Position numbers and translations under genes: made by a program. From an uncultured virus (IMG/VR IMGVR_UViG_3300025133_000039) (taxonomy: Duplodnaviria; Heunggongvirae; Uroviricota; Caudoviricetes): a stretch of DNA of 56,484 nucleotides. Positions 17,646 to 50,658 of this stretch are shown here, in pieces. The notes below the pieces were generated by a model. It was given only the letters and a program-made list of their open reading frames with translations, was not told the DNA's origin and made no database searches. Where the stretch lies: IMG/VR virus record IMGVR_UViG_3300025133_000039, one strand, 5' to 3'. Position 1 is the stretch's first letter. Each line of letters begins with the position of its first letter.

Positions 17646-17790
17646 CAGGCTCCTCCGGCTTAAAAGGCTTGATTTGGATGGTTACGAATTCGCCATCTTC
17701 TTCGAACTCAGCGAATGCAGGCAAAGAGACAGGTCTTCCAGCTGCGAGGTCTTCTTTTTGTCCCTCGTCAAGATTAGCACGCCAACTCAT
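17578..17790 (-). CDS. Small hypothetical protein
   Basis: GGAG RBS before ATG at 17790 (MSWRANLDEG...), downstream of the capsid terminator. Overlaps the next gene. Confidence 0.45.
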   Translation of the reverse strand: MSWRANLDEGQKEDLAAGRPVSLPAFAEFEEDGEFVTIQIKPFKPEEPDASTNSNSGLSERPSDGDTRPS

Positions 17791-31435: not shown

Positions 31436-34400
31436 TTACATCCTATGGTGGCCGATGGCGCTGTTGAAAACGCTCTGGTTTACCTGTCTTTGGGCTGCAG
31501 CCTGCACTGAGCGCCTATGCTTTCTCTCTCTCGCTGCAGCGACGTCTGCACCGTAGTCCTTGTAGGCCTGAAGACTGCGTCGAGCATATACTGACGTAGT
31601 TGTACCCGCTGTGTCCAGTGACAGCTTCTTATCTAGTTTACCATAGCCACCCCTGTGCTTAAACTTGTCCTGCTGGCGTCCGCCCCTAGTTTTCATTAAC
31701 TCCGAGGTGTCTCTAAGCATTTCAGACATATAGTTATTGTGTGGAGCCTGGTGGGTTCTATAGGTGCTACGGTTTCTATAATCATCGTAAGTTCCAACTC
31801 TCTGCAACGTAGAGCCAATCTCTACAGCTGCGTTCAAGTCGTTAACCCCAGCGTAACCCTGTTCCTGAGCCTGGCGCATGAGGGATGCGCCTGACATAAG
31901 TGTAGCGTTCTTCGAAAGTCGTGCCCTCTGAGCGATGGTGTTAAACGTAAGTCTTTGATCCATCTTGTCAGACATACCATAGTAAATCTGGAAGAATGGC
32001 TCAGCGTGGAGGCCTCGGCCTGCCTCTCTAGCTTTCGTCTCATGGGCGACCGCGACCGAGTAATCAACCATGGACTTCTTCCAGCTACCATAAGGTAGTG
32101 CTGCGGCGTGGCCCTGCTTTACTAGGTCAAAGTTTACGTTACGCTTGTCTGCAAATAGAACGCCGACGCCTCGCCCATAAGTAGACTGGGTGGGGTCGTA
32201 GACAATCTCAAGGTTTCCAGCTCCTGCAATAATCGCTTCCATTGCAGTCTTCGCTTCGTGCGCGTGTGGCTGGGGCGAGTACCAACTACGAGCACCGTGA
32301 CTAATTTCTGGAGAGTCAATACCAGCTAGTCGGAACGAGTACTTATTCATTCCGAAGAAGCCCTGAATCGCACCCACTACGCCACGTCGCGCGACGGACA
32401 CTGTGTCTGCGTCCTCGGCTGTAACCTTCCAATTCCCACTAGATAGGTTAATCCCTAGAAGGTTCTTACCCTTCATCCCGGAGTACTGGGACGCATCAAT
32501 ACCTTCTCCAACGAATCCAGAGGGAATAGAGCTAGCATGCCTTAGAGGGTTAAAAGCTCGTAGGGTGGAGATGTCTGCGAAGACTCCTGCTACTGGATCG
32601 TAGTGCCTAACTCCGTATACTGAGCGCATATACTTCTCACGCTCAGCAAGAAGCTCCTGGTCCATTAGAACAGCATTAGATGTCCAAGGACCACGGTAAG
32701 GTGAGCCGAAGTCCGTGTTGAACTTACGCCTGTCTGCAGCAATGCCTGACTCATTCATTCCTGAACGCCAACCCTTGTCGTTGTCGTTCAGATGTCCGAA
32801 GTTCGACTGGAACTCCTTCCACCTCTCATAATTCTGGGTGCGGAATACAGTATGGCTATCAGGTCTTTGGTCATTGCGGTTGCCGAACGCTAATCCCAGA
32901 GCAGTAACTGAAGCTGCAGCAAGTACCCCACCCTTCATCGCCTTAGAGAGACCCATACCTTGGAAGCGAGAAGTGCGTCTCGGGCCTCCACTCGCATCTA
33001 GGTTATCTATTAGCTGAGGAAGGGATGTACGACGGAAGAATTCATCAACTCCACCGTCAAGGTCTGCAATCATCTTGTCTAGCGAGCCAATGCCAGCATG
33101 CTCTTCTCTGAAGCCTGCGCTGATCCTCTGTAATGCTGTAGCTTCACCTACCTTGAGACGCCCGCCTTCCATTTTAAGACCTCCGCCCTCTTTGAGGCGT
33201 TCGGTCATTTGATTCCAAATTCCGCTAACGCGGGCGGCGTCATACTGCCCAGTATTTATAATGTAGTGAGCGGCTTGCTCTACATCCTTGAAAGTCTCTC
33301 TGGCTGCGAGGTTTACAGGGACCTCAAGAAGTTTGCCGTCAGGAGTCATCTGCTGAATCGCGCGAGTACCTCCGGACCCAGCGTGCTGTGCTGTGAATCC
33401 CTGGGTAGCAAAGTCCTGGAACATGCGATCGAAGCGCTTAGTCAAGTTAAAGCTCTGTAGTTCTGGAGCTAGTACGTCAAGGCGCTTTAGGAACGTCATT
33501 GCCTGGTGCAGGTGGCCGCCGCCTCGACGAGCTTCCTGAATAAGCTTCTTACCCGCAACTCCACCAAGCTGTACCTGGCGTAGAGCTTCAGTGCTCTCAA
33601 GAGACTTACGCAGGACGTAAGCTTCGGTAGCTGCAGTATCTTCTACCGCACGGTGCCACTCTTTACCCTGGAACATCTTAGTTGCCAGGGTTGGGTCTGC
33701 CTCGGTCGAACCAAAGAGACGCGCTGTAATATCCATCGAGAGTCCGTACTCTCGCCCAGGAGCGCTGAATAAGCCTAGCTGCCTACCATAAGACTGCTGT
33801 GCTTTAAGTACGTCCATGATGTCTCGAACATCACCAGCGCCAGTATTCCTTAGATACGCTTCATAGACCTGGGTCCAGTCGCCAGAGTGCTGTGCGCTGG
33901 CTCGGGCGGCGTTAACCGCCTTGCCAGTCACGTATAGGTTGTCAGCTGTCTGAGGGTTGAATGAAGCTAAGCCTTCATGTAGCCCGCTCTTCCGCATCTG
34001 TACGGCTAGCGCGTCTTCCTTAGAGATAGTCCCAGCCTGAACCTGCTCAAATAGCTCTGTGGGAAGCGCCGCAATCTGAGCGCCAATCTGCTTTGATTCG
34101 AACGGAGCGTTCGCAATCCAGATGGTCTTACCCTTCATTCGCTGAAGCATATCTGACCCAGGTGCCAGAGCTTCTTGAATACTAGTTCTTTGGGTAATGA
34201 TATCGCTAATGTTTCCGCCCATGCCTCTAATACGCTGCATACGAAGTGCAACGGGCTCAGAGCCACCACCATATGCCGGAGACTTTCCAGTCGCTAACAT
34301 GTGGGCCTGGAACGGATCAATCTTAGACAGCTGCTCAATAAGAGCAGCCTGCTTAATGTTCTTTAGTGCACCCGGTTTCTCGCCCTTCGCCATCTCTAGC

Positions 34401-34669
34401 TGGGCGATAATCACATCCCTCCAAGTAGAGTTCTTACCAATACCTGGGTGCCTCCTAGTAACGTCGTATCTGGTAGTCGCTAGCTGAAGGATATCCTGCT
34501 TCGGCCCACCCATACTTACTACTAGGTTAGGCTTGAAGAGGTACTCGTACGCCTTCTTGGTCTGTAGGTCGAAAATCGCCAACTCATGCAAACCACTACC
34601 ACGCTGAAGACCCATGGTCTCAGTATCGAGCAGAATTGCGTTTTGTAGCAGCGATAGACCTCGGTCCAT
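31436..34669 (-). CDS. Fusion of an N-terminal DEDDh-like 3'-5' exonuclease and a C-terminal SNase (thermonuclease) domain
   Basis: Exonuclease motifs LLDTETMGL, WIANAPFE, DIMD, HRAVED. SNase motifs DADTV, RLAGIDSPE, TYGR, VNFDLVKQGHA. Confidence 0.75.
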   Translation of the reverse strand: MDRGLSLLQNAILLDTETMGLQRGSGLHELAIFDLQTKKAYEYLFKPNLVVSMGGPKQDILQLATTRYDVTRRHPGIGKNSTWRDVIIAQLEMAKGEKPGALKNIKQAALIEQLSKIDPFQAHMLATGKSPAYGGGSEPVALRMQRIRGMGGNISDIITQRTSIQEALAPGSDMLQRMKGKTIWIANAPFESKQIGAQIAALPTELFEQVQAGTISKEDALAVQMRKSGLHEGLASFNPQTADNLYVTGKAVNAARASAQHSGDWTQVYEAYLRNTGAGDVRDIMDVLKAQQSYGRQLGLFSAPGREYGLSMDITARLFGSTEADPTLATKMFQGKEWHRAVEDTAATEAYVLRKSLESTEALRQVQLGGVAGKKLIQEARRGGGHLHQAMTFLKRLDVLAPELQSFNLTKRFDRMFQDFATQGFTAQHAGSGGTRAIQQMTPDGKLLEVPVNLAARETFKDVEQAAHYIINTGQYDAARVSGIWNQMTERLKEGGGLKMEGGRLKVGEATALQRISAGFREEHAGIGSLDKMIADLDGGVDEFFRRTSLPQLIDNLDASGGPRRTSRFQGMGLSKAMKGGVLAAASVTALGLAFGNRNDQRPDSHTVFRTQNYERWKEFQSNFGHLNDNDKGWRSGMNESGIAADRRKFNTDFGSPYRGPWTSNAVLMDQELLAEREKYMRSVYGVRHYDPVAGVFADISTLRAFNPLRHASSIPSGFVGEGIDASQYSGMKGKNLLGINLSSGNWKVTAEDADTVSVARRGVVGAIQGFFGMNKYSFRLAGIDSPEISHGARSWYSPQPHAHEAKTAMEAIIAGAGNLEIVYDPTQSTYGRGVGVLFADKRNVNFDLVKQGHAAALPYGSWKKSMVDYSVAVAHETKAREAGRGLHAEPFFQIYYGMSDKMDQRLTFNTIAQRARLSKNATLMSGASLMRQAQEQGYAGVNDLNAAVEIGSTLQRVGTYDDYRNRSTYRTHQAPHNNYMSEMLRDTSELMKTRGGRQQDKFKHRGGYGKLDKKLSLDTAGTTTSVYARRSLQAYKDYGADVAAARERKHRRSVQAAAQRQVNQSVFNSAIGHHRM

Positions 34670-37797: not shown

Positions 37798-38163
37798 GCC
37801 TCCTAAACTGCGAAGCAGTTTACATTTAGAAGTCAAGTCTAAGCTCGACATATAGGGAAAGTCAATTTTGATTATTTATATTTTGGGGTTTGGGCCGCGA
37901 TTCTTGTCAGAAGTCTTTGTCTCTAAGTAGGCGAAATTATTGTGAAAATATATTTTGCAGTACTAGGGTTGGTAGAGGATATATAGGAGATTTGACCAGG
38001 TTAGTGTTGTGTCATTTTGGGAGTACCGTTCATTCGAGCCCACCCCGGTTTAATCCAGCTTTTTTATTTCAACGGTGCGCTGAAGCACCATGGAGATAGA
38101 GACATGCAAGAGGCCTGTCCTCTCGGGACGAGGACATCAGCTAACTCCTAACCTCTAACAAGT

Positions 38164-38200
38164 AAAAAAGATGCACTGCCGCAAGGCAGTGCGCTTTTTT
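38164..38200. terminator. Bidirectional terminator-like hairpin
   Basis: AAAAAAG-ATGCACTGCC-GCAA-GGCAGTGCG-CTTTTTT. Confidence 0.75.
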
Positions 38201-38212
38201 ATTTCTGACGAT

Positions 38213-38925
38213 AGCGTGCGGTACCACCGTCACCTACACACCACCAGTGTGCAGGTAGCAGTAGGGCCGTAGTCGTACCTGTAGTCCCCGTGGGCTACCA
38301 TCCTATACGTATCGTGGGCTCGTACCCAGCATGAATCGGTATGCGTATAGGTTGGCTCTGATGTAGCTGTCGTGTAGCCCCATGTACCTAGTGCATGGGA
38401 TAGGTCACCACCTAGTAGGGTAGGGCATAGCAACCCCTGCCCCACACATGGTGAGTGTACTAACAGGGTGACACCTGGCTATGGGTACCCCTCTCATACC
38501 CGTTAAGAGAGGGGAGGTACGTGGTCCACCTAATAGAAGGACTGAGCATGTGGTGTGGGTAGCGCCCACCACGGCTCCTGTGTGTGCAACGCACACAGTC
38601 ACCGGGTACACCACAGGTAAGTGTACATACGTAGGTCTCACTGCGTAGCGACTAAGGTGTAGTAAGGGGTGTTCCACACACACAACCCCTGAAGGCCTAT
38701 GAGAATACCGGATCCTAGGGGGATACCTAGGGTCGGCGGGCCTGGAGGCCGAAACATCCAGGCAAGGGTCATAGCAGAGATACCGCACCTTCCGTGCGAT
38801 TGAAACCCGGTCTAACCAACCAAAGAATCTCTGTGGTCAGGAAGTAAGTTGGCCTGACACACCTAGCGCCCAGGGTTAAGGGCACCCAGCACCGTTCTGG
38901 TGCTACCCCGCACGATGAAGTGCAT
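38213..38925 (+). ncRNA. Candidate large (~700 nt) structured non-coding RNA or leader
   Basis: No credible ORF. More than 12 consecutive hairpins, many with G.T pairs that work as wobbles only on the + strand. Confidence 0.55.
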
Positions 38926-38939
38926 AGATGGAGATAGTA

Positions 38940-39707
38940 ATGTCCGCTTTCGTGAACTACGAGCTGCCTGTGTGCGTGCTCCCTGTCCTCCTCTTGCTCA
39001 TCGGCTACGGCCTGATGAGCATCGCCAAGCGCAGCCTGACGGCTGCCGTGTTCTCTGGTAACACCGAGCGTGTTGCCTACCTCGCGGAGGCCCTCATGGA
39101 GAAGGCCTCCTACATGAACCGCTTCTGGGGTAAGACCCAGGAGTGGTTCGCCACTCGCCCTGCCGCGCTCTCCTCGTGGGCTCAGGCCCGCAAGGAGAAC
39201 GTCCGTTCCGCTGGGAAGGCGGTCGCCAAGGGCTTCCTGGCCCTGGCAATGGGGCTCTTCGCCCTGCTGCTGCTGCTGGTCGCTGGGGTTGGTGCTGCCG
39301 CCAACCTCACCGTCGCCACGTACCGCAAGGCGCGTGCTTCCCTGAAGGCCCGGATCCTGAACTGGCTCGGTGCCACGGAGATGGTGAACGAGCTGAAGCG
39401 TGAGAACGCCAAGCTCAACCTGAAGGTCCGTCGCCTGGAGATCCTCCAGCAGGTTGCCGATCACGACTACGTGGTCCAGACCGAGGCGGACAAGATGGCC
39501 GAGGTGCTCGATGCTGAGTTCCGTACTCAGCTGGAAGTCATGCACCGTGACGACATCCAGTGGATGTGGCTGCAGCTGTACCCTGGATACAGCTGGCGCT
39601 CCACGTTCTGCAAGGAGTGGGGAATTGAGGACATCATGGTCCTCCCCCCTGGCCACCGAGCGAAGGCCTATGAGGCCTTCTGCAAGGTGGGACCGCTTCC
39701 GTTCTAG
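38940..39707 (+). CDS. Hypothetical membrane-anchored coiled-coil protein
   Basis: GGAG RBS, two hydrophobic segments and strong G/C-ending codon usage. Confidence 0.75.
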   Translation: MSAFVNYELPVCVLPVLLLLIGYGLMSIAKRSLTAAVFSGNTERVAYLAEALMEKASYMNRFWGKTQEWFATRPAALSSWAQARKENVRSAGKAVAKGFLALAMGLFALLLLLVAGVGAAANLTVATYRKARASLKARILNWLGATEMVNELKRENAKLNLKVRRLEILQQVADHDYVVQTEADKMAEVLDAEFRTQLEVMHRDDIQWMWLQLYPGYSWRSTFCKEWGIEDIMVLPPGHRAKAYEAFCKVGPLPF

Positions 39708-39907
39708 TGGTCTGCGGTGACTGCCTGGGGGACATGCATATCGTTGGAAAGCGGTATGTGTGTCCCCCGTGTGAGGATGCGCCCGAGGAGAGGCGTGTCA
39801 AGAAGGTGAAGCCGGTGAAGGTGAAGAAAAGAGTAATTCCCTTCACTGGTGGTGGCGCTACCGCCACCAAGTGGGCCTGCGGTTGTCTCTTTGAGTGCGA
39901 CTGCTAG
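39707..39907 (+). CDS. Small Cys-rich basic protein
   Basis: CxxC...CxxC and CxC...CxC motifs, lying between a stop codon and a terminator. Confidence 0.4.
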   Translation: MVCGDCLGDMHIVGKRYVCPPCEDAPEERRVKKVKPVKVKKRVIPFTGGGATATKWACGCLFECDC

Positions 39908-39917
39908 GCAAGGTGAT

Positions 39918-39960
39918 GGGGTGGCGGGTCTTCGGACCCGTCGCCCTGAGCTTTTTTCTT
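39918..39960 (+). terminator. Hairpin with cUUCGg loop plus T-tract
   Basis: GGGTGGCGGGTC-TTCG-GACCCGTCGCCC, then TGAGCTTTTTTCTTT. Confidence 0.75.
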
Positions 39961-40041
39961 TGATGATACCGAATGTACGGCGTTCTAACACACGACGTCA
40001 TACGTTCTCGAACCACCTGTGTGTTCGTTAGGAGCTAGAAG

Positions 40042-43000
40042 TTGGAAAACTTCAAGCGTCTGTTCGCCCTCGCGATCAGCCTGCTCGTCTTCGTCGCTAA
40101 GAAGCGACTGTATGGCGTGAAGGCTGCCACAAACCCGAAGGGAATCCTCACCTGGATCCCCTCTAACCTCAACAAGGATATGGGTCACGTCGGCCTCATC
40201 TCCGAAGCCAACCCGGACACCACCCGTTTCGAGATTATCGGAATGGAAGAGTCCATCACCCTGGTGCCGAATGAGGAATGGCACCCCTCTATCGTGACCA
40301 TGGCCTCCTGGAATGCCAAGGAGACCGGTCTGTTCAACTGGACGAAAGTTCAGTCTCTCTTCGATGAGGGAGACCTCATCGTGTCGAAGAAGGCGGAAGA
40401 AGTGGAAGACCACAACCGACGACTCGACGCTCGAAAGGAAGAGCGCGCTGTGAACCGGCGCACTCGCTCCCTGAGGGCTCGTGTCGAATCCTACATCACT
40501 AGCTTCCTGTTGGTGGTGTACAAGAAGATGATGCCTGAGGGTCCGAAGGTTCGTACTCGTTACACTCGGTTCGTGAGCCTGTCTGGGCTCCTGCACCGGA
40601 TGTTCCCGGATCTGCCGATGCCGAGTGTCCAGCTGAAGAACGACATGCCTGCCGATGAGCAGCGTGACGATCTGCCGGTTGCCATTCATCAGGCAGTTGC
40701 TCGTGATGGCCACATGCTGGTCAACCGCAAGCACATCGTCCACCGTGAGATCGTGCCCCTGTTGGCGAAGACCTTTCCGAAGGCCATCGACTTCAGGGCG
40801 TACGTCAAGGGTCTGTGCGCGCCTCTCGTGGCCAACGGTCACAGTCGCGTCGAGGTTCGGTTCGTTCACCTGCAGCATGGCAACAAGAGTGCTGGTGCTG
40901 ATGGGCGTGGCAACATCCACCCGAACCACCCGCTGTTCGCTCAGCTGGGCTACAGCGGACATGGTCCTCGTCCCTGCATCCAGATTCGTGGATGGAACCC
41001 TGACTTGGGATGCTTCATCAAGGGCATCCTGGTTCCGAGCGAGTCGGCAACGGACGCTGAAGGCAACCCCGAGATCCAGGTGGACTGGCTCCAGATCAAG
41101 GGGCTGCTGAAGGAGACGGCAAAGGCGAAGCACAAGCGTGCTGCCAAGAAGGTCTCTGATGGTCAGGCTCTCCACACGTTGGAGATGGCTGAGGCTGAGT
41201 TCGGTACCTACGAGTCGCAGGAAGCTCGTCGGTGGCTGGATGAGGGTCGGATGGTGCTGGACCTGGGTGTGACGAACGTCTTCGACAAGATCGTTCCTTA
41301 CTCCTGGTGCTTCGAAATCCTTGAGCGTGTAGAGGACACGCCTCGTACTCGTGAAATCATTCGCGAGTGGGTGGAAGAAGCGTTCCAGAAGCTGACCTTC
41401 GAGAAGCTGCTGGATTCGGCCTGTGCTCAGAGCGACAACGTTGCTTTCGCTCGCAAGCTGTGCAAGAAGCTCGGCATTGACCCGCTGAGCTTGCGCTTCA
41501 TCATGAAGCAGGTGCAGAAGGCGCTGGGGCAGCGGCTCTGGCTCATCAACCAGGGAGCTGGTAAGAAGGGTGATGGCTTCGTGTCCATTCTGGATGCAAC
41601 GCTGGAGCCTGGAACGTGTGTCCTGCCCTCCATCATGAAGGGTAAGCAGCGCGTGTACCTGCCGGGAGACACCATTGGAATCACTCGGTTCCCGATGGTC
41701 CTGCCTCAGGGTCTGCGTGTTGTGCGTGTGGTCGAGCCGTCCGAGCATCACCTGCTCAAGACGGAAGACGGCATGCAGCACGTCCCGAACGCCATCTGGC
41801 TCCACCCTGACGATCTGGAGATCGGCATGCAGGGTGACGACGATGGAGACGTGGTCATTGTGAACTCGGACCCTCGGGTTGTGGAGTTCTACAAGGAGCG
41901 TATCTCCATGCTGCCTGGTAAGCCGGACGCCATGTACTTGATTGAGCCTGTCAAGGGTGAGAACAAGGACAACCGGCTGGAAGAGCTGCACAGCCTCAGT
42001 GCTGAGGGTCGTGCGCTGGTGGCTAAGGATGGTCGTGGTCCGGTGGGTCTGAGTACCTTCTGGGGAGCGGCGTTCCTGGCGATTGGCAAGCGGGTTCACG
42101 GTCTGAGCATGGCTCACCTGACTCAGGAGTACATCGACTGTGCCAAGCGGATTCCGTTGTGGACGGACCCGCGTCAGGCATCCAATCCGAGCAACTACGA
42201 AGAAGTTCGGCCTGGAATCTGGAAGATCAAGCCCGGTAACACGGTGGAGATGGACTGGGCAGACGATGATGGCATGCTGAATCAGGACCTGGTGACCAAG
42301 TGGGTGCAGAAGCAGTTGGGCATGAAGCTCAACGACATTCTGTCCTGGCGTCAGCCGAATGGTGTGAAGAGCATCATTCTCGACTCGTGGGACATGCCCG
42401 AGGAGCCTGTTGGCAACCTCGTGCACTACTGCTCGCGGACCGCTTTCGAGGTGGCGCAGGGTTGGGCTGAAGAGCAGCTGGGTACTCAGGAGTCCGGTGA
42501 CATGTCGATGCTGGTCGTCGAAGCGCTGGAAGCAGCAGGTCAGGACATGAGTGGTGTTGAGCCGATGGCTCAGGAGCGCTACGTCAAGACCTTGCGAGAG
42601 AAGAGTGGTCTCAACGAGTTCGCCAAGTCCACGCTGTCTGTCATGAAGGCAGGCCTCGATGTGGAGGAGAAGGCTCGTCAGATGGATGCACTGCGTGCCA
42701 TCCTGGCTGGTCACCTCTCGATGCTGAGCATCGAAGAGTTGGCTACCATCTGGGTCACCGAGCTGTCGCAGCGGGATGAGAATGGCAACATTCCTGACCG
42801 GGCTGTCACTGCAGCGTTCCGGGCTGTGTGCTGGGAGGGTTCGCCCGTCCTGGTTGCGCTGAACCTGGAGCACAGCGATCGGTGTGAGTTCGCAGCTGAG
42901 AACATGGACGCCATCATGGCGTGGCTGCAGCACCGCGTTGATACCGGCAAGAACGGGAACTTGTTCCACGCGCTGGCTGAGACCATCTCGTCCAGCGTGA

Positions 43001-43179
43001 AGCACCAGGAAGTCACTGGTGTGGAGCTGCACAAGTGCAAGGACTGCACTACCCTCATGGAAGGCAAGGTCGTGTCCGAGGTCAGGAAGACCAAGGGCTC
43101 GGATGCTGAGAGTGTTGTGAAGGACATCATGTGGTCCGTGAACCGTGAACTCGGTTGGCCCACGAGCCGTCACAGCTAG
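40042..43179 (+). CDS. Single-subunit two-barrel RNA polymerase (YonO / cellular RdRP-like)
   Basis: Ordered motifs DGRG, QIR, KGIL, QIK, TRFP, catalytic GDDDGD (41836-41850) and QEYIDCAK. AGGAG RBS before TTG. 1045 aa. Confidence 0.85.
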   Translation: MENFKRLFALAISLLVFVAKKRLYGVKAATNPKGILTWIPSNLNKDMGHVGLISEANPDTTRFEIIGMEESITLVPNEEWHPSIVTMASWNAKETGLFNWTKVQSLFDEGDLIVSKKAEEVEDHNRRLDARKEERAVNRRTRSLRARVESYITSFLLVVYKKMMPEGPKVRTRYTRFVSLSGLLHRMFPDLPMPSVQLKNDMPADEQRDDLPVAIHQAVARDGHMLVNRKHIVHREIVPLLAKTFPKAIDFRAYVKGLCAPLVANGHSRVEVRFVHLQHGNKSAGADGRGNIHPNHPLFAQLGYSGHGPRPCIQIRGWNPDLGCFIKGILVPSESATDAEGNPEIQVDWLQIKGLLKETAKAKHKRAAKKVSDGQALHTLEMAEAEFGTYESQEARRWLDEGRMVLDLGVTNVFDKIVPYSWCFEILERVEDTPRTREIIREWVEEAFQKLTFEKLLDSACAQSDNVAFARKLCKKLGIDPLSLRFIMKQVQKALGQRLWLINQGAGKKGDGFVSILDATLEPGTCVLPSIMKGKQRVYLPGDTIGITRFPMVLPQGLRVVRVVEPSEHHLLKTEDGMQHVPNAIWLHPDDLEIGMQGDDDGDVVIVNSDPRVVEFYKERISMLPGKPDAMYLIEPVKGENKDNRLEELHSLSAEGRALVAKDGRGPVGLSTFWGAAFLAIGKRVHGLSMAHLTQEYIDCAKRIPLWTDPRQASNPSNYEEVRPGIWKIKPGNTVEMDWADDDGMLNQDLVTKWVQKQLGMKLNDILSWRQPNGVKSIILDSWDMPEEPVGNLVHYCSRTAFEVAQGWAEEQLGTQESGDMSMLVVEALEAAGQDMSGVEPMAQERYVKTLREKSGLNEFAKSTLSVMKAGLDVEEKARQMDALRAILAGHLSMLSIEELATIWVTELSQRDENGNIPDRAVTAAFRAVCWEGSPVLVALNLEHSDRCEFAAENMDAIMAWLQHRVDTGKNGNLFHALAETISSSVKHQEVTGVELHKCKDCTTLMEGKVVSEVRKTKGSDAESVVKDIMWSVNRELGWPTSRHS

Positions 43180-43184
43180 TCAGA

Positions 43185-43263
43185 AGTAAGGGAGGAGCTT
43201 CGGCTCCTCCCTTACTGCGGGAGGTGGCACCAATAGGGGTGCCACCTCAGGTCTTTTTTCTTT
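43185..43263 (+). terminator. Tandem hairpins plus T-tract after the RNAP gene
   Basis: AGTAAGGGAGGAGC-TTCG-GCTCCTCCCTTACT and GAGGTGGCACC...GGTGCCACCTC, then TCTTTTTTCTTT. Confidence 0.8.
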
Positions 43264-43294
43264 GATGGGTAATGACACCCGAAGGAGAGACGCC

Positions 43295-43696
43295 ATGATC
43301 GTTAGCAAGCTTAACTCTGTCAAGGTCTGGACCCCTGGTTCCGACATCGATGCTCGCGACGCCTTCCGCTTCTGGGGCTACGTGTTCCAGTGGGAAGGCA
43401 AGGCGAGGGGGCCCGAGGAGCGCCGCCGTCGCTTTCGGCAGGTTCACAACCTGCTGAACAACCTGTACTGGGATGAGGAGGCCGAGGCCGCGCTGTTCGA
43501 TGTCTACTACTGGGGTTCCTTGAACCGCACGTACAAGACGGAGAACCACCCCGGTCACCGGTTCTTCCAGGCCTTGCAGGGTCACGTGTGGAAGTTCGGG
43601 TCCAAGAACCGGAAGAAGACGGACCGACCCTGGAAGTGGGTCCGCGTGCCGAACAACGACAACCCGTTGGCCCCGTTCAAGGGTCTGCACTGGTAG
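43295..43696 (+). CDS. Hypothetical early protein
   Basis: AAGGAG RBS before ATG at 43295 and biased codons. Confidence 0.75.
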   Translation: MIVSKLNSVKVWTPGSDIDARDAFRFWGYVFQWEGKARGPEERRRRFRQVHNLLNNLYWDEEAEAALFDVYYWGSLNRTYKTENHPGHRFFQALQGHVWKFGSKNRKKTDRPWKWVRVPNNDNPLAPFKGLHW

Positions 43697-43790
43697 AGTC
43701 GTGAGTAGTGGGTGGGGAGGCTTCGGCCTCCCCGCCCTGGTCTTTTTTCTTTTACGGTGTGATATACAACCCGCACACCTAGGAGAGAAC

Positions 43791-44105
43791 ATGACTACGT
43801 GGCAACAGCGAATGAAGGAAGACCGACTCACCAACCGCTACCAGAACTGCGTTGCGAGCGAGTTCTACTGGTACAACAACGGTCGCAAGAGCATCTCGAA
43901 GGAAGAGATGCTCGACATCATCAAGCCCTTGCTGAAGTCGAACCAGGACTTGTGGTACATCATGCACTGCATCATGCCTTACGGTCCTGAGGGGAACCCC
44001 GGAATGCACTTTGGCAACATGACCAGTGGTGATGGCATCGGCCCGAAGACGGTCGAGAAGATCTTCGAAGCGGTCCAGGCCGCAGTGAACGAGAAGATGG
44101 CCTAG
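43791..44105 (+). CDS. Hypothetical early protein
   Basis: AGGAG RBS before ATG at 43791, followed by a GAAA-loop hairpin. Confidence 0.75.
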   Translation: MTTWQQRMKEDRLTNRYQNCVASEFYWYNNGRKSISKEEMLDIIKPLLKSNQDLWYIMHCIMPYGPEGNPGMHFGNMTSGDGIGPKTVEKIFEAVQAAVNEKMA

Positions 44106-44308
44106 ATTGAGATGGAGGGGAGGCCGAAAGGTCTCCCCTCCAGTACTCTTTTATTTGGTACTAACGACGACCTCCGCACACAGGCCTCTTCTCACGCCAC
44201 CATTCCTCCGCGACGACGACAGGCTCGCTTACGCTCGCTAGGTGGTGCTGGCATAGCCCAATCGGGCCTCGCCTTTTTCTTTCCCACTCTTTTCGTTTGG
44301 AGGTGTAC

Positions 44309-44449
44309 GTGAAGAAGCCTCGTAACTGGCATGCCGTCAATGCGAAGTTCCGGTCATCTGCTGGTCCTATGAAGAATAAGAGTCTTCGTGGGTCTGGTAA
44401 GGGGAAAGGGAAGGTTGCGCGCCACCCCAAGCACAAGTCAAAGTACTGA
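44309..44449 (+). CDS. 46-aa basic mini-protein, ArfA-like
   Basis: GGAGG RBS plus GTG. Sequence MKKPRNWHAVNAKFRSSAGPMKNKSLRGSGKGKGKVARHPKHKSKY; KGKG..R..KH resembles the ArfA C-terminal motif. Confidence 0.55.
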   Translation: MKKPRNWHAVNAKFRSSAGPMKNKSLRGSGKGKGKVARHPKHKSKY

Positions 44450-44514
44450 GGTTGAGGCATCCTAGTGGTGCCTCAACTAATCGAATAAACAAGCTCGATT
44501 ACTCTCGCTACGGG

Positions 44515-44707
44515 GTAGTGCAGTCCTCGGGCTCCCGAAATCCAGATAGGCCTGTCTGGATCGACATGGGGGTTTGGTTCTGAGACGGTGACTAGTACCC
44601 TGGGCAGGGAGCTGGTTTTGGGTCGGATGCATGCTGAGCCTCAGTGCCTTAGGGCTCTACCGCATGTCAAACGACCTTTTCCGAGGGGTTCGAATCCCCT
44701 CTGCACT
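44515..44707 (+). ncRNA. tRNA-like ncRNA (7-bp acceptor plus canonical T-arm) with a ~160-nt structured insert
   Basis: AGTGCAG (44517-23)/CTGCACT (44701-07) stacked on AGGGG-TTCGAAT-CCCCT (44684-700), with nested internal stems. Confidence 0.7.
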
Positions 44708-44742
44708 TTCTAATAAACAAGCTCGCTTATGCTCGCTGGATT

Positions 44743-44920
44743 GTGAGAGCTAGAGACAAACCTCTAACGATCAACGGGAGCGCGAGGCTGGAACCATACC
44801 AGTTGCATTCTGCAAGCACACCTCCTACGTGTGGAGTACCAGACACAGTGTGTGTCGTCTGGGGACGTAGGCCGCATGCTCGTTGGAGTTGAGAGTCATA
44901 CCTGTTTCAGGGTGGCTCTC
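44743..44920 (+). ncRNA. Candidate structured small RNA
   Basis: Between motif A and a terminator, with no RBS-led ORF. Stems CTCTAACGA/TCGTTGGAG, CCTACGT/ACGTAGG and CCAGAC/GTCTGG. Confidence 0.55.
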
Positions 44921-44960
44921 TTCTTTTTAATAAAGAACGCTCTCTTACGTTCGCTGGGCT

Positions 44961-45147
44961 GTGCAGGTCTTGATCAGCCTGCTCGCACGACAACAGTGAT
45001 GTACAGCTGGGTCGGGAGGACTACTCTTCCGATTCTGTCGAGCGGTTCATAGGTGGCGCCGAGGTGGCATCTCGGGCAGCAACTCAAGCATACATTCACG
45101 CCAATGGATGGGAGAAGAGAACCTCGACGGAGGTTCTCTTCTTTTTT
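44961..45147 (+). ncRNA. Candidate structured small RNA
   Basis: Between motif A and the terminator AGAAGAGAACCTC-GACG-GAGGTTCTCTTCT-TTTT. Starts GTGCAGG. Internal stems GCTCG/CGAGC, GTCGGGAG/CTTCCGAT and CCGAGG/TCTCGG. Confidence 0.5.
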
Positions 45148-45225
45148 AATAAAAAAGAACCACAAGCTCTCTTACGTTCGCTGGAGGGTGCTGGGACCAT
45201 GTCGGTCCCACACGGAGAGAATACC

Positions 45226-45504
45226 ATGATCGTTGTTACCCGCCACCCCGCGTACTTCCAGTACCTTGTCGAAGAGGGAGTCTGCAAGTCCGACGACGAG
45301 GTCGTCGAGCACGCCACGGTCGCGGAGATCGCAGGGCGTGACGTCGTCACCTCCGGGCTGCCGCTCCACCTTGCAGTGGAGTGCAAGACCCTCACAACGG
45401 TGGGGCTGTTCCTCCCCGCCGAGCTGCGTGGCAAGGAACTGGACATCGAGGACGTGCGCAAGTACGCCCAGCCCGCCGCAACCTACGTCGTGACCGGAGC
45501 CTGA
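45226..45504 (+). CDS. csx16: Csx16 (VVA1548)-like protein, putative cyclic oligoadenylate ring nuclease
   Basis: Signature VTRHP...VVEH...GLPLHLA...LPAELRGKEL..ED...Y.V. GGAG RBS, 92 aa. Confidence 0.75.
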   Translation: MIVVTRHPAYFQYLVEEGVCKSDDEVVEHATVAEIAGRDVVTSGLPLHLAVECKTLTTVGLFLPAELRGKELDIEDVRKYAQPAATYVVTGA

Positions 45505-45619
45505 AGCAGGGAGAAGAGAAGACGAGAGGCGGACCTTACGGGGTTCGCCTCTCTCTTTTAATAAGCTCGCTGACGCTCGCTAGGACTTGAGGCTTCGTCC
45601 TCACAACCAAGGAGGTAAC

Positions 45620-46180
45620 GTGGGAAACACGTTTGGAATGAACCCGTTCGTGCTGCGGCAGGTTGAGGCATCACGCTTCAGCCACTTCCGTGGCTCGCAC
45701 ATCTGCCTGCTGGACATGGTCGCGGAGTCGTTCGACCCTGAGACTCAGCAGGGATACCGACCTGGAGTCTACGAGGTTCCCGTGAACCCCAAGGGCTTCT
45801 TCTCCAACCAGGTGACGCTGGTCGAAGGAGATCTGCTGGTCGGCAAGTTCGAGGCTCGCCGTGAGGGTGAGGCTCCCAGGAAGACCGTTACGACGCTCGC
45901 ACGTCGCAAGTCGGTCGCTGGCTCCGCAACCATCATCATCTACGCCTCCGCTGTCTTGGCGGAAGATGGTGACAACTCGCTTCCTCCGCTGCCGGGGAAC
46001 TACGAGGTGGTGTCGATCAACTGTACGGCAGAAGAGCAGTTGCCCATCTGTCCGGAGGTGCTGATGCACAACCACTTCGGCAGTACTGGTGGCACGAGCA
46101 CGGGTCTGAGCGACTCGGAGTTCGTGGCGGTGCTCAAAGCATCGTTCCTAGCACACCGGGACAAGGCTAGCTGCGGCTAG
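45620..46180 (+). CDS. DUF3228-like protein
   Basis: AAGGAGG RBS plus GTG. Pattern F..RQ, GY.P, EARREGEAP, IY, YEVVSI, P.xP..LMHN...GGT. Confidence 0.6.
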   Translation: MGNTFGMNPFVLRQVEASRFSHFRGSHICLLDMVAESFDPETQQGYRPGVYEVPVNPKGFFSNQVTLVEGDLLVGKFEARREGEAPRKTVTTLARRKSVAGSATIIIYASAVLAEDGDNSLPPLPGNYEVVSINCTAEEQLPICPEVLMHNHFGSTGGTSTGLSDSEFVAVLKASFLAHRDKASCG

Positions 46181-46255
46181 GAGAACTAGGGAGACCACTC
46201 TTCGGGGTGGTCTCCCTAGAACTAATAAATAATGCTTGCTGACGCTCGCTACGCT

Positions 46256-46338
46256 GTGCAGGATTCTACGTTGCACGCGCGCGCACTGGAAGCAATCCGG
46301 CCTTAGGATGGGGTTCGAATCCCTCGTGAGTCCTGCAC
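46256..46338 (+). ncRNA. Degenerate tRNA-like RNA with an elongated acceptor stem
   Basis: GTGCAGGATTC(T)ACG/CGTGAGTCCTGCAC closing stem, GGGG-TTCGAAT-CCCT T-arm and CTGG-AAGCAAT-CCGG anticodon-like arm. Confidence 0.65.
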
Positions 46339-46357
46339 TCTTCAACCAGGAGACACC

Positions 46358-46534
46358 ATGTTCGCACGACTGAAGCGGCTCTTCACCAAGAAGACCACGC
46401 CTCCGCACTACGAGATCTTCACCACCACGTACATCGATGGTGAGTGCTGGATCTGCCAGCGCTCCACTGGGACTCCGATTCGTCGGCTGTCCTCCTTCTT
46501 CAACGACTCCCACAACCAAAGGATGGGACGATGA
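46358..46534 (+). CDS. Small hypothetical protein (58 aa)
   Basis: AGGAG RBS, MFARLKRLFTKK..., ATGA overlap with the next gene. Confidence 0.6.
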   Translation: MFARLKRLFTKKTTPPHYEIFTTTYIDGECWICQRSTGTPIRRLSSFFNDSHNQRMGR

Positions 46535-46992
46535 ACGCATACCAACGACGAAAGGCCCGACGCGCGGCGCTCCGCATGGTGGCCAACTTCCAGACGAAGC
46601 TGTTCCGGGTGCCCGGTACCGCTGCGCACGCCGAGCCGCTGAAGTGCCGAGGCTACAAGTTCTCGGTGCAGGCCTCGGACTACCACTACTCCGAGCCGCG
46701 AGACTGGTGTGCCTACACCGACTACACCGAGATGGAGGTCGCGATCTTCGACTCGGACGGAGACTGGTGTGTCCTGGCCGACGCCGAGGAGCACGAGTTC
46801 GGCACCCGCTTCGAGAAGTGGGACGGAGCGACCACCAGCGTCACACCGTACATGGAAGTCGAGAACATCCAGGCACTGCTGAACGCAGTCGCCCTCGGTG
46901 AGATTCGGCCCATCAAGCTCTCGGACTACCTCCACATGGTGAAGGCTGACCGCGAGATCGAGGCGTGCATCAACGGCATGGACGTGGTCTAG
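46531..46992 (+). CDS. Hypothetical protein
   Basis: ATG at 46531. FSVQAS.YHYSEPR...EVA motif common in phage hypotheticals; biased codons. Confidence 0.7.
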   Translation: MNAYQRRKARRAALRMVANFQTKLFRVPGTAAHAEPLKCRGYKFSVQASDYHYSEPRDWCAYTDYTEMEVAIFDSDGDWCVLADAEEHEFGTRFEKWDGATTSVTPYMEVENIQALLNAVALGEIRPIKLSDYLHMVKADREIEACINGMDVV

Positions 46993-47010
46993 TTAGCAAT
47001 CACGCTAACC

Positions 47011-47088
47011 ATGTACTCCTTTTCTACCGCATTGGAGTGCATTAATAAAGACGGTAGTGGGTCAGCTGTGCCCATCGTACTAACAGCT
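47011..47088 (+). ncRNA. Two tandem H-type pseudoknots in a 3' UTR
   Basis: PK1: ATGTACTCC/GGAGTGCAT plus CTACCG/CGGTAG. PK2: GTGGGT/GCCCAT plus AGCTGT/ACAGCT. Confidence 0.55.
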
Positions 47089-47187
47089 TGTAGGGAGTGG
47101 CTTCGGCCGCTCCCTACTTAATTATAAACAAGCTCTCTTACGCTCGCTGGATCGTGGTAATTCCGAACAACTCTCACCGAGGAAACC

Positions 47188-47358
47188 ATGACCGACTACG
47201 AACCGAACTTCGTCATCCTGACGTACGAGGACCTGTTGCTGCTCGAACTCATCTACACCATCCGTCAGGAGATCGCACGCCAGCGTCGAATCGCTGTCCT
47301 GCTGGATCAGCTGGCCGACACCATGGAAGAGCTGTACGAGCTGGGCTTCCCCTACTAG
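47188..47358 (+). CDS. Small acidic helical protein (56 aa)
   Basis: GAGGA RBS. MTDYEPNFVILTYEDLLLLELIYTIRQEIARQRRIAVLLDQLADTMEELYELGFPY. Occupies its own cassette. Confidence 0.65.
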   Translation: MTDYEPNFVILTYEDLLLLELIYTIRQEIARQRRIAVLLDQLADTMEELYELGFPY

Positions 47359-47436
47359 TCCCTCCGCTGAGCCTGCCCTGTCTGGGTGGGCTCAGCTGGG
47401 TGCAATAAATAAGTGCTCGCTTACACTCGCTACGTG

Positions 47437-47714
47437 GTGGTGAGATGAACAGCTCCCTCTGCAGGCAATGACTCGCTTTCCGTCCTGTGAGTGTCACGCC
47501 TTCATGGAGCCACGTTCACCCGTCGTGTCGAAGACTCTGTCTACAGCTGAACCAAAAAGAACACCGAGGACTCGCGTCCTGTTCGAAGTAGGTACCCATA
47601 AAAGCAAATAAGGCCCGTACTCCCCCTCCGAAACCGGATCGGAACACGAGTAGGACCACAGCGTAATCCGCGCAATGCTGGGATCAAGGTTGTAGGTAGA
47701 GTCTTCGATATGGC
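47437..47714 (+). ncRNA. Candidate structured RNA with a 26-bp G.U-rich closing helix
   Basis: 47522-47547 pairs with 47689-47714 at all 26 positions. Upstream domain TGAAC..GCTCC/GGAGC..GTTCA. Confidence 0.7.
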
Positions 47715-47741
47715 TCAACCTTCTCAATAATAAGGAACAAG

Positions 47742-48023
47742 ATGGAAATCAACTTCAGTCACTTCATCGATTCCCGAGCCAACGCGAAGAAGGCCTTGGC
47801 GGCACTGATTCACCTGTGCAAGGCGTTCGATGTTGATGATCGCGACATCCACGCGATCATTCGTTCGATTGCAGGAACGCAGAACGCAGAGATTCCAGTC
47901 ATCGCCGTCTACGAACTGGGGAATACGATCCCGACCATGAAGAAGATCCAGGTCATCAAGCTGATCCGCATGCAGACCGGCTGTGGACTCCGCGAAGCCA
48001 AGATCGCTGCGGAAAGCATGTAG
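47742..48023 (+). CDS. Ribosomal protein bL12 (L7/L12) C-terminal domain-containing protein
   Basis: KKIQVIKLIRMQTGCGLREAK matches the KI.VIK.VR..TG.GLKEAK signature. AAGGA RBS. Confidence 0.75.
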   Translation: MEINFSHFIDSRANAKKALAALIHLCKAFDVDDRDIHAIIRSIAGTQNAEIPVIAVYELGNTIPTMKKIQVIKLIRMQTGCGLREAKIAAESM

Positions 48024-48181
48024 TCGCATAACACTCGCGTACGCTCGTGACGTGGTGGTGGTTTCTCCTGCGGGGGTGTCTGGCTTCGGCTGGGCACCCT
48101 CGCTTCTTGCCAATAAGACTCGCTTACGCTCGTTGCGGGGTGATGACCTGGCGATGATGCCTTGTCTCAGCAGGAGGGCTC

Positions 48182-48460
48182 ATGCCCAACAAGGAAGACA
48201 AGTCCCTTGCTCCGATGCCGTGGTGGGCCAAGCTCATCGTCGGTGCGACCGCTGTTGGTCTGATCGTGAAGTTCACGCCGATCCAGCAGTGCCTGTACCT
48301 GTTCCTCATGATCGTGATGGTCCCGATGGCCCTGTTCGCAGGAATCGGTCTCATCTCCCAGGGCACCTACGAGGCGCTCCAGGGGAAGATCGCGGAAGCT
48401 CAGGCTGCGTTGCAGGAGCGAGTTGACGAGAAGATGCGGGAACGACGAGCCTCGGCTTAG
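48182..48460 (+). CDS. Small membrane protein with coiled-coil tail
   Basis: AGGAGG RBS and two hydrophobic segments. Confidence 0.7.
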   Translation: MPNKEDKSLAPMPWWAKLIVGATAVGLIVKFTPIQQCLYLFLMIVMVPMALFAGIGLISQGTYEALQGKIAEAQAALQERVDEKMRERRASA

Positions 48461-48514
48461 TCCAACCGTCCGTACTGTAAGCAAGAAGTAAAACCGTACT
48501 AAGGAGTACACCCA

Positions 48515-48958
48515 GTGAAGATTTCCCTTCAGGCCGTCACCGACACGGTCACCGCTGCCGTTCCCGGCACGTTCAAGTTCGCGATGCACGGTGGCAACTG
48601 TCACGTCACCTTCGGCTCCCTCCGGGGTTCCGATGACGAGGCCAAGTGCCGTGCCCTCACCCAGGCTGCCGACGCCCTCCGCGCCGCTGGTCTGGAGCCC
48701 ACGGTCCGCCTGTCCACCCGGTTCAAGGGTGAGGACAACTGGTCCCCGATGCCTCACATCTGGGTCAACCAGCCGTCCGCGCAGGAGCAGGCCACCTCGA
48801 ACCTGGAGCAGCAGGTCGCGACCCTGACGACTCAGTTCTCGCAGCTGATGTCCGCCCTCCAGGCGGGTCAGGCTCAGGCGGCTCCGGCTCCGTCGGGTCC
48901 CGAGGTCGTTCGCAAGCCCTCGAAGGAGTCCGTCAGCACTCCCGACTCGCCCATCTAG
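48515..48958 (+). CDS. Hypothetical protein
   Basis: AAGGAG RBS plus GTG and strongly biased codons. Confidence 0.75.
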   Translation: MKISLQAVTDTVTAAVPGTFKFAMHGGNCHVTFGSLRGSDDEAKCRALTQAADALRAAGLEPTVRLSTRFKGEDNWSPMPHIWVNQPSAQEQATSNLEQQVATLTTQFSQLMSALQAGQAQAAPAPSGPEVVRKPSKESVSTPDSPI

Positions 48959-49043
48959 GGCAAGAAGCTGACTTCCTGAAGTATGGGGGTGGGTCCACAG
49001 TTCCGTGGGCTCACCCCTGACGCTTCATAACTAAGGAGAAACG

Positions 49044-49244
49044 ATGGCTCGTCGTCACGTTTCGTACCGTGTGTACTCGGATCATCCGAAGCACAAGCAG
49101 ACCTCCGTGGATGTGTTCATTCCCGAAGGTCAAGATCCCCTCGTGGCTGGCTTCCGAGCGAGTCACGACCTGCGTCAGGTTCCGATGACGTTCACCCGAG
49201 GCAAGGCCACGTTCAACACGCGGTTCAGCTACCGGAGGAACTGA
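49044..49244 (+). CDS. Hypothetical protein
   Basis: AAGGAG RBS, 66 aa. Confidence 0.7.
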   Translation: MARRHVSYRVYSDHPKHKQTSVDVFIPEGQDPLVAGFRASHDLRQVPMTFTRGKATFNTRFSYRRN

Positions 49245-49537
49245 TGGGATACAACGCAAACCTGGCAGACCCCAAGGCCTGCCTGATCGTTCGGAAGTTC
49301 ATGCGTCCTGTGAAGGGCCGCAAGAACAAGGAACTCGTGCTCCGCGCCTTCATCGGCAAAGAGACCGAGGCCGGCAACTACACCGGCTCGTCGTACCGCT
49401 CGTTTCCGATTCTGGACCGACGCGGCAACTACGACGCAACCAAGTGTGCTGACCGCAACGCCTGTTGGGTCGGACCACGCCTGATTCGTCTCCGTGATGG
49501 AGCCGACATCACCCCGGAGGAAGAGAATGCTTCGTAG
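49244..49537 (+). CDS. Hypothetical protein
   Basis: TGATG coupling and GGAGG RBS. Confidence 0.7.
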   Translation: MGYNANLADPKACLIVRKFMRPVKGRKNKELVLRAFIGKETEAGNYTGSSYRSFPILDRRGNYDATKCADRNACWVGPRLIRLRDGADITPEEENAS

Positions 49538-49745
49538 CCTTCTTCGCATCGCAACTGCCCAACGTGAGGCTTTCACGTCCGCTCTCGTCAACGAGGCTGA
49601 CGTGCTCGGTCCCAAGCTGGTGGAGACCGTCAAGATCTGCGTCCGCTTCAACAAGCAGGAGGAGGGTCGCCGCGAGCGAATCGTCGCCGCCTACACCTCC
49701 TACCTCAAGCAGATCGACGAAGTCCTGGAGGAAGACGATGGCTGA
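49527..49745 (+). CDS. Hypothetical protein
   Basis: GGAGG RBS before ATG at 49527. Confidence 0.65.
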   Translation: MLRSLLRIATAQREAFTSALVNEADVLGPKLVETVKICVRFNKQEEGRRERIVAAYTSYLKQIDEVLEEDDG

Positions 49746-49989
49746 GACGACCAACGACCAGTCGAAGGGGATCAAGTTCGTCTTCCGCAGGGTGAAGGGC
49801 CAGGAGTACTCCCTGCCCTACTCCTACGTGGAGGACCGCTTCGTCGAGAACTCGGCCAGCAACCGCGAAGCCGCCGAGAACGCCAAGGCCTCTGGCTTCA
49901 CCTACGAGACCATGCAGAACAGGTACGGACGTGACAGCGCCAAGCTCCAGGCGGAGCTGAAGCGCAAGCAGCCGGCGATGTTCCTGTAA
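49738..49989 (+). CDS. Hypothetical protein
   Basis: GGAGG RBS before ATG at 49738, followed by a terminator. Confidence 0.7.
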   Translation: MAETTNDQSKGIKFVFRRVKGQEYSLPYSYVEDRFVENSASNREAAENAKASGFTYETMQNRYGRDSAKLQAELKRKQPAMFL

Positions 49990-49995
49990 AGAACC

Positions 49996-50029
49996 ACGTG
50001 AGGATCCCTTCGGGGGTCCTCACGTTTTT
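49996..50029 (+). terminator. Intrinsic terminator
   Basis: ACGTGAGGATCCC-TTCG-GGGGTCCTCACGT-TTTT. Confidence 0.85.
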
Positions 50030-50583: not shown

Positions 50584-50658
50584 ATAACTCTTCATTTAGG
50601 CCAGATTCGGTTCAGTAATGGACTCGATCTGAAGATAACTCTTCATTTAGGCCAGATT
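50584..50658. repeat. Perfect 24-bp direct repeat ATAACTCTTCATTTAGGCCAGATT x2
   Basis: At 50584-50607 and 50635-50658, within an AT-rich non-coding stretch. Confidence 0.9.

Follow-up and report, generated by a model that had tools for sequence, protein, structure and literature searches.

A tRNA-shaped, probably non-decoding RNA behind a presumed phage-polymerase promoter in an uncultured tailed phage

Phage T4 encodes two stable RNAs, species 1 and 2 (rnaC and rnaD), which are 120-140 nt long, do not decode and are linked to processing of the tRNA type. To our knowledge, their function has still not been established, and we know of no function for other non-decoding tRNA look-alikes of phages, decades after the T4 stable RNAs. 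Phage tRNA genes proper are now partly regarded as counter-measures to host defences that cut tRNAs. In plant mitochondria, the so-called t-elements consist of an acceptor stem and a T arm that direct cleavage by RNase P and RNase Z within a longer transcript and have no working anticodon. In the YrlA RNAs, the tRNA-like part is internal and the termini form a Ro-binding stem. These bacterial Y RNAs are described in PMC4201824 as non-coding tRNA mimics that engage tRNA enzymes. A module of acceptor stem and T arm, again with no working anticodon, is also found in mascRNA and menRNA (RF01684), where it provides the signal for RNase P and RNase Z cutting in a longer transcript.

Here we describe a putative tRNA-shaped RNA gene of ~191 nt, hereafter the element (44517-44707/8, + strand), in a window of 56,484 nt, by which we mean the whole stretch of DNA that was analysed. 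The T4 RNAs and the element can be compared by description: both are phage non-decoding RNAs tied to tRNA-type processing, which in the element is predicted. The T4 genes form part of a cluster of tRNA genes and are read by the host polymerase, whereas the element follows a motif ascribed to a phage polymerase, has no tRNA neighbours in the window and possesses a three-arm interior. The likeness to mascRNA and t-elements fits best for a short paralogue of the element, which is located in an mRNA leader. Those modules are eukaryotic or organellar, of tRNA size and placed at the 3' end of the transcript, whereas the element is phage-borne, ~191 nt long and situated at the 5' end. As in the tRNA-like domain of tmRNA, its paired ends constitute an acceptor stem stacked on a T arm, with a large inserted domain; unlike tmRNA, it is half the size and lacks the G3:U70 pair, the tag ORF and the pseudoknot series. 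The termini of the element form the acceptor stem, in contrast to those of YrlA; no Rfam Y RNA matches it, and no Ro60 gene was found among the window ORFs scanned.

By analogy, the closest systems in function would be the T4 stable RNAs together with the cutting signals of mascRNA and the t-elements, and the closest in topology the tRNA-like domain of tmRNA. The novelty lies in its association with the presumed promoter of a two-barrel polymerase, in an interior of three arms and in a paralogue that acts as an mRNA leader. None of the papers listed by literature searches describes the element, or an RNA with a tRNA top half that follows the promoter of a two-barrel polymerase; PMC10690425 mentions unnamed tRNA-like candidates in IMG/VR, and its supplementary tables might list a relative. 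The locus offers a well-framed case of such a look-alike, with a promoter motif, exact top-half geometry, structural selection, a leader paralogue and genomes with and without the element. It also supplies a candidate promoter for a little-studied class of two-barrel phage polymerases.

The tRNA-like top half

The 5' strand of the acceptor-like stem, AGTGCAG (44517-44523), pairs with its 3' strand, CTGCACT (44701-44707), through seven of seven Watson-Crick pairs. The end stem directly adjoins the T arm (44684-44700), in which a 5-bp stem, AGGGG/CCCCT (44684-44688 and 44696-44700), encloses a UUCGAAU loop (TTCGAAT, 44689-44695). The 7-bp acceptor on a 5-bp T stem, the UUCRANY loop and the G53:C61 pair are those of canonical tRNAs. 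Uridines occupy position 8 (T44524) and the discriminator position 73 (T44708, which completes the 3' strand at 44701-44708); the next letters are TTC, and CCA is not encoded. Pair 3:70 is U:A, not G:U. The acceptor pairing, its stacking on the T arm and the absence of both an encoded CCA and an alanine-type G3:U70 acceptor had been pointed out in the preliminary description, and all are borne out by the sequence and the fold. In the unconstrained ensemble, acceptor pairs 1-6 have probabilities of 0.86-1.0 and the T-stem pairs of 0.96-0.97. Acceptor pair 7 has a probability of 0.08, because G44683:C44701 competes with it as a sixth T-stem pair. The stack can be drawn as 7+5 or as 6+6, with 12 stacked pairs in both.

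ARAGORN reported no tRNA or tmRNA gene over the window, and Rfam 15 gave no match at gathering scores. At E <= 10, six weak Rfam matches were obtained on 44400-45250, none of them to a tRNA, tmRNA, intron or Y RNA. The one match on the element is to mascRNA-menRNA RF01684 (E = 4.6) and stems from the T arm; it scores 15.4 bits where the gathering score is 42.5, so that the element is not a member of that family. When introns of up to 300 nt were allowed at the default threshold, ARAGORN found no gene at the locus. At an 80% threshold, it proposed a tRNA-Gly with an 89-nt intron at 44538-44710, which has a different 5' end, and no tmRNA. A canonical tRNA was rejected on the ARAGORN result, the lack of an Rfam tRNA match to E 10 and an arm at the anticodon position that ends in a 4-nt loop. 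An intron-containing tRNA was rejected on the empty default search, the other 5' end of the sub-threshold call and the lack of an Rfam intron family, and tmRNA was discarded on its missing ARAGORN and Rfam matches, the U:A pair at 3:70 and the lack of a tag ORF. The earlier proposal of a tRNA mimic outside the known families agrees with these searches and with a fold that keeps the top half and has three arms without an anticodon loop. As the interior consists of three unrelated hairpins, the element should be unable to read codons.

The chance of such a top half was evaluated by a strict scan of the window and 18 related loci (286 kb, both strands), which required 7/7 acceptor pairs (G:U allowed), 5/5 T-stem pairs, G53:C61 and a TTYRANN loop. 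Six matches were obtained, namely the element and five true tRNA or tmRNA genes. Shuffled sets contained a mean of 1.0 match per set (range 0-3, 40 sets), and the scan by itself is therefore weak evidence. Stronger points against chance are the all-Watson-Crick acceptor, the two copies of the T-loop core and the end stems linked to promoters. Two exact copies of the 11-mer GGTTCGAATCC are present in the window (44687 and 46312), against ~0.03 expected by calculation; each is found a short distance 3' of a promoter-motif copy and is accompanied by an end stem that begins at the predicted transcript start. A 23-nt string covering the T arm and acceptor strand was present in no IMG/VR stretch. 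Relaxed T-arm scans of 23 related loci yielded two candidates that were dismissed as chance: 11202-11274 of L002, a stretch that reads as coding, and 1487-1610 of L096, which lies inside a 287-aa ORF.

Interior arms and natural variation

When the acceptor stem and T arm are imposed as constraints, three arms form in the interior. Arm 1 (44526-44584, + strand), at the position of the D arm, comprises an outer stem and a 9-bp hairpin at 44540-44561. The pairs of the outer stem are uncertain, with probabilities of 0.23-0.83, and no variant site bears on them. The hairpin ATCCAGATA/TGTCTGGAT (44540-44548 and 44553-44561) has a probability of 0.83-1.0; it had been described with ten pairs and is real, with nine, since a tenth would leave a 2-nt loop. 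Arm 2 (44590-44617, + strand), at the anticodon-arm position, is built of a 7-bp and a 4-bp segment on either side of an A-A internal mismatch and closes in a 4-nt GGGC loop. A 7-nt anticodon loop is absent from this arm, and there is no D stem in the element. Arm 3 (44620-44677, + strand), at the variable-arm position, is a 58-nt three-segment hairpin in which the previously proposed pairing of GGTCG..GCATGC..GAGCC with GGCTC..GCATGT..CGACC is confirmed and is backed by natural variation. The GCTCCC/GGGAGC stem suggested along with it (44530-35 and 44607-12) is complementary in sequence but has a pairing probability of 0.00, and is refuted because the variant-supported arm 2 (sites 44614 and 44617) uses that stretch locally. 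For the loop of arm 3, 19 complementary sites were found in the window at no more than two mismatches against 15.6 expected, with no target beyond chance.

The minimum free energy of the element is -82.3 to -82.7 kcal/mol (z = -2.43, equalled by 3 of 200 shuffles). Its own z is modest, and the opposite strand also folds (-67.6, z = -2.19). The strand is assigned from arm 2, where the reference has three G:U pairs that would read as A-C mismatches on the other strand, and from all 12 promoter motifs and the neighbouring genes, which lie on the + strand. Three small ORFs overlap the element and are unsupported as coding: in a natural allele described below, the change 44632 T>C removes the ATG of a 40-aa ORF, and a 41-aa GTG frame over the element accumulates three synonymous and four non-synonymous changes by hand count.

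Seven sequencing runs were listed for the element, none of them of RNA; contigs of four DNA runs were compared with 44100-45700 of the window for natural alleles. A variant, allele B, was recovered in two of the four, which belong to different studies: X2 (a 128-nt contig, 44567-44694) and X6 (a 151-nt contig, 44538-44688). It is identical to the reference over 44538-44596 and differs at seven sites: 44597 A>G, 44614 G>A, 44617 T>C, 44629 G>A, 44632 T>C, 44658 T>A and 44664 A>G. All seven are compatible with a two-allele consensus fold, in which no pair is broken. In arm 3, U44632:A44664 is swapped for C:G, G44629:U44667 becomes A:U, and the 44658 T>A change permits a new pairing with U44635; in arm 2, the changes at 44614 and 44617 turn G:U into Watson-Crick pairs; the 44597 A>G change sits in an internal loop. 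In the reference-only fold, one pair is broken by allele B because another register is used at 44629. Measured against that fold and 20,000 random 7-site sets, the joint chance of at most one break, at least one compensatory change and at least two G:U-to-Watson-Crick changes is 0.002. Allele B also has a minimum free energy of -87.3 against -82.3 for the reference, a value equalled by 2% of 300 random 7-site mutants. These data come from a single variant allele whose contigs span the interior up to the T arm, leaving the acceptor stem, the start of arm 1 and the last bases of the T arm uncovered; they support selection for structure in the interior of the element, with arms 2 and 3 kept.

In run X2, the seven differences fall within 68 nt (44597-44664), and the flanking contigs (~0.5 kb upstream and 1 kb downstream) contain 0-1. 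This clustering points to a small mosaic patch or to locally raised diversity in the RNA arms.

Promoter motif, polymerase and related loci

The window is part of a tailed phage genome, and the phage is present in marine metagenome runs. The minus strand, up to ~37.8 kb, encodes the tail sheath, the major head protein, the portal and the large terminase. From 38.9 to 50.7 kb, the genes are small, lie on the + strand and mostly fall outside known families. The GC content is 0.57-0.61 in this early region (38000-50000) versus 0.48-0.53 elsewhere, and is ~0.50 just before the rise. A blastn search of 44300-45100 against a phage GenBank collection returned no match.

A motif of ~30 nt, aaacA.GCTCGCTTACGCTCGCT-N5-GTG, is present in 12 copies between 44220 and 50048, every one of them on the + strand, and is presumed to be the promoter of a phage two-barrel polymerase. 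No sigma-70-type site was found in 43900-46600. One copy (44490-44516, + strand) has its predicted start near 44515, so placed that the element begins 0-2 nt past the conserved GT(G/A). The next copy follows 10 nt after the element, and no terminator was found between 44517 and that motif.

The candidate polymerase is a 1045-aa protein encoded at 40042-43179 (+ strand), 1.3 kb upstream of the element. Its Pfam RdRP match (E 0.0023) is below the cut-off, a search of 5.8 billion proteins found three relatives besides itself, and a PDB sequence search with the polymerase profile gave no match. The sequence QGDDDGD is invariant in 13 of 13 aligned relatives. A Foldseek search with the AlphaFold model (pLDDT 71.9) retrieved QDE-1 (E = 1.5e-11, TM 0.44/0.49), phage P74 gp62 (8.7e-8), P32 gp64 and the crAss-like phi14:2 virion polymerase. 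Members of the class share the double-psi beta-barrel fold and a DxDGD metal site, and the modelled fold together with the conserved motif places the product among the two-barrel single-subunit RNA polymerases (QDE-1, YonO, P23-45 gp64 and crAss-like enzymes).

The motif accompanies this polymerase in other genomes. A related locus, L001, encodes a polymerase 86% identical to that of the window and has 10 copies, all 10 on the + strand. The motif core also lies on the + strand beside the polymerase genes of the distant relatives L002, L006, L094 and L095, and is thus kept next to polymerases that are only 26-34% identical. The exact 17-nt core was found in 72 stretches among 2.9 million IMG/VR contigs, and two of the five polymerase-bearing IMG/VR contigs are among them. 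Three of the 72 (two of the same sequence) have GTG at the expected spacing; none has a T-loop within 400 nt or the context of the element. A search of IMG/VR with the polymerase alone found no relative.

A short paralogue of the element lies at 46255-46342 (+ strand). It starts at the promoter copy at 46231, has an 8-bp end stem, GTGCAGGA/TCCTGCAC, and carries GGTTCGAATCC within a T-loop 14-mer (46309-46322) common to both forms. It constitutes the leader of a 58-aa ORF (46358-46534), with a ribosome-binding site in between. Its orthologue in L001 (9008-9092) fronts a different gene, and the end stem there is longer by a matched insertion of G and C. Neither short form has its T hairpin 7 bp from the end, which leaves the long form as the only exact tRNA mimic; the stem of the short forms may be a plain 5' stabiliser and their T loop a tertiary motif. 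With the repeated promoter-like motif, the polymerase, the lack of a terminator and the paralogue, the element reads less as a lone oddity than as one of a small group of tRNA-like modules with which early transcripts of this phage would begin.

At the site of the long element, L001 has another RNA, an orthologue of the window stretch 44961-45148 (z = 35.5), and contigs of runs X5 and X6 leave the window sequence at exactly 44515 and continue into this same RNA. The long element is, therefore, an optional, dispensable cassette that is swapped at the promoter. A 9-nt word common to the element and RNA X of L001 was dismissed as not significant (z = 1.0). RNA3 starts with the same GTGCAGG, in a simple hairpin, and the end stem may thus be a general feature of transcript starts and not tRNA mimicry. 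True tRNA genes follow the polymerase gene in more distant relatives; tRNA-Lys was found in five of 18 metagenome loci and in one IMG/VR locus, and L010/L093 contains tRNA-Tyr, a 391-nt tmRNA and tRNA-Lys at 16585-17761, ~4-5 kb downstream of the polymerase gene. No tRNA-like module was found outside ORFs in these distant relatives.

Proposed role, alternatives and neighbouring units

From its sequence features, we consider the element with fairly high confidence to be a real, expressed, non-decoding tRNA-shaped RNA. Given such an RNA, the use of its top half as a processing handle is a tentative proposal, to which we assign somewhat less than even likelihood. The preliminary description had suggested that the RNA might serve RNase P/Z, the CCA enzyme, EF-Tu or tRNA-targeting defence nucleases as a substrate or decoy. 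The phage two-barrel polymerase would start transcription at ~44515, host RNase P would cut at 44516/44517, and an RNase Z-type cut would follow after U73, possibly succeeded by CCA addition. The tRNA enzymes could in this manner free a compact RNA of tRNA-like stability from a unit that lacks a terminator. Once released, the RNA would use its top half and interior arms at an early stage of infection, and might occupy a host protein that reads the acceptor/T-arm side of tRNAs; candidate targets are an enzyme of processing or modification and a tRNA-directed defence nuclease. In the short paralogue, the same module would serve as a detachable 5' leader of an mRNA. The explanation as a whole, in which a stable non-decoding early RNA of ~191 nt is released by tRNA end-processing and occupies a host protein via its top half and arms, stands in our estimate at an even balance.

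A joint reading goes further and is unlikely in our view. According to it, the tRNA top-half modules at +1 of the early transcripts of the two-barrel polymerase would form a system that hands terminator-less or leader-bearing phage RNAs to host tRNA maturation, and the free-standing 191-nt form would act early as a decoy and titrate a host factor directed against tRNAs, for instance a defence nuclease that recognizes the acceptor and T arm or a nucleotidyltransferase toxin. The element would then be an RNA counter-defence gene, placed beside a Csx16-like candidate anti-CRISPR gene.

The exchange of cassettes exactly at the predicted start site, seen as loose contig ends at 44515, would also be expected of a plain 5' structural cap and cassette boundary that stabilises transcripts of the phage polymerase or aids promoter escape, its likeness to tRNA stemming from an old tRNA fragment and no tRNA enzyme being involved. 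The long form, the short form and RNA3 all begin with GTGCAG(G) paired to a downstream CCTGCAC-like strand, and the short forms lack the 7+5 geometry. Such a cap would leave the exact 7+5 (or 6+6) geometry of the long form, with its U8 and U73, unaccounted for, as well as an 11-nt T-loop core that is unaltered across three otherwise diverged modules; moreover, neither a gene nor a terminator follows the long form. We regard this explanation as rather unlikely. The element could instead be a tRNA gene in decay, perhaps a former tRNA-Cys, disrupted by insertions and without a function of its own. A 20-nt T-arm/acceptor query had its sole exact match in the tRNA-Cys of a Doudnabacteria MAG (one genome each, 185,579 species), with identity over 23 nt, the same U73 and a 5' strand that differs only at pair 1:72, and distant relatives of the phage have true tRNAs, one of them also a tmRNA. 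One or two such matches are expected by chance, as estimated for the millions of tRNA genes with this T-loop core, so the tRNA-Cys match is a weak lead only. The perfect top half, the promoter motif of its own and the compensatory change in the interior arms also argue against decay, which appears quite improbable.

The tRNA-like ends and the sub-threshold ARAGORN call at 44538-44710 would suit an interrupted tRNA from which an intron or insert is removed to leave a working tRNA. That call does not share the 5' end of the element and disappears at the default threshold with introns allowed, no group I, group II or other intron matches in Rfam to E 10, there is neither a D stem nor a 7-nt anticodon loop, and ~115 nt would have to be removed from more than one place; this origin is very improbable. 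Even less credible is a reduced, tmRNA-like RNA that would act on ribosomes together with SmpB. The topology of paired ends, T arm and large interior recalls the tRNA-like domain of tmRNA, a true tmRNA follows the polymerase gene in the distant relative L010/L093, and 44558-44565 may resemble the D-loop analogue of tmRNAs. Against this stand the absence of a tmRNA call by ARAGORN even at the 80% threshold and of an Rfam tmRNA match to E 10, the U:A pair at 3:70, the missing tag reading frame, and an alignment to the L010 tmRNA that recovers the T loop only (z = 1.9). A non-decoding early RNA released by tRNA end-processing remains the reading that we prefer.

The surrounding early region contains several further units. 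Directly 5' of the element, a 46-aa ORF (44309-44449, + strand), very basic and rich in Lys and Arg, has its own promoter copy; in contigs of runs X3 and X5, its leader is replaced. The hairpin 3' of this ORF (44450-44478, + strand) is kept in L001 with altered loop and stem letters and lacks a U tract; the transcript from upstream may end or be processed here. Two more promoter-to-terminator units of ~185 nt each, without convincing ORFs, occupy 44743-44928 and 44961-45148 (+ strand). The latter folds strongly (z = -4.43, with 0 of 200 shuffles equal), has an orthologue in L001 and gives a weak Rfam match to Chlorobi-1 (18.8 bits against 50) that covers the terminator only.

At 45226-45504 (+ strand), a 92-aa ORF contains a Csx16/Cas_VVA1548 domain (Pfam 50.6 bits, cut-off 25; NCBIfam below cut-off). 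It has its own promoter motif and terminator, is absent from L001 at the same place and is a candidate phage counter-measure against type III CRISPR signalling. Outside the early region, amid the structural and packaging genes, the minus strand encodes at 31436-34669 a protein of 1077 aa that contains a staphylococcal-nuclease domain (Pfam E 4.7e-11). Close to the last promoter-like copy (50664), a perfect 24-nt direct repeat is found at 50584-50607 and 50635-50658, with a spacing of 51 nt.
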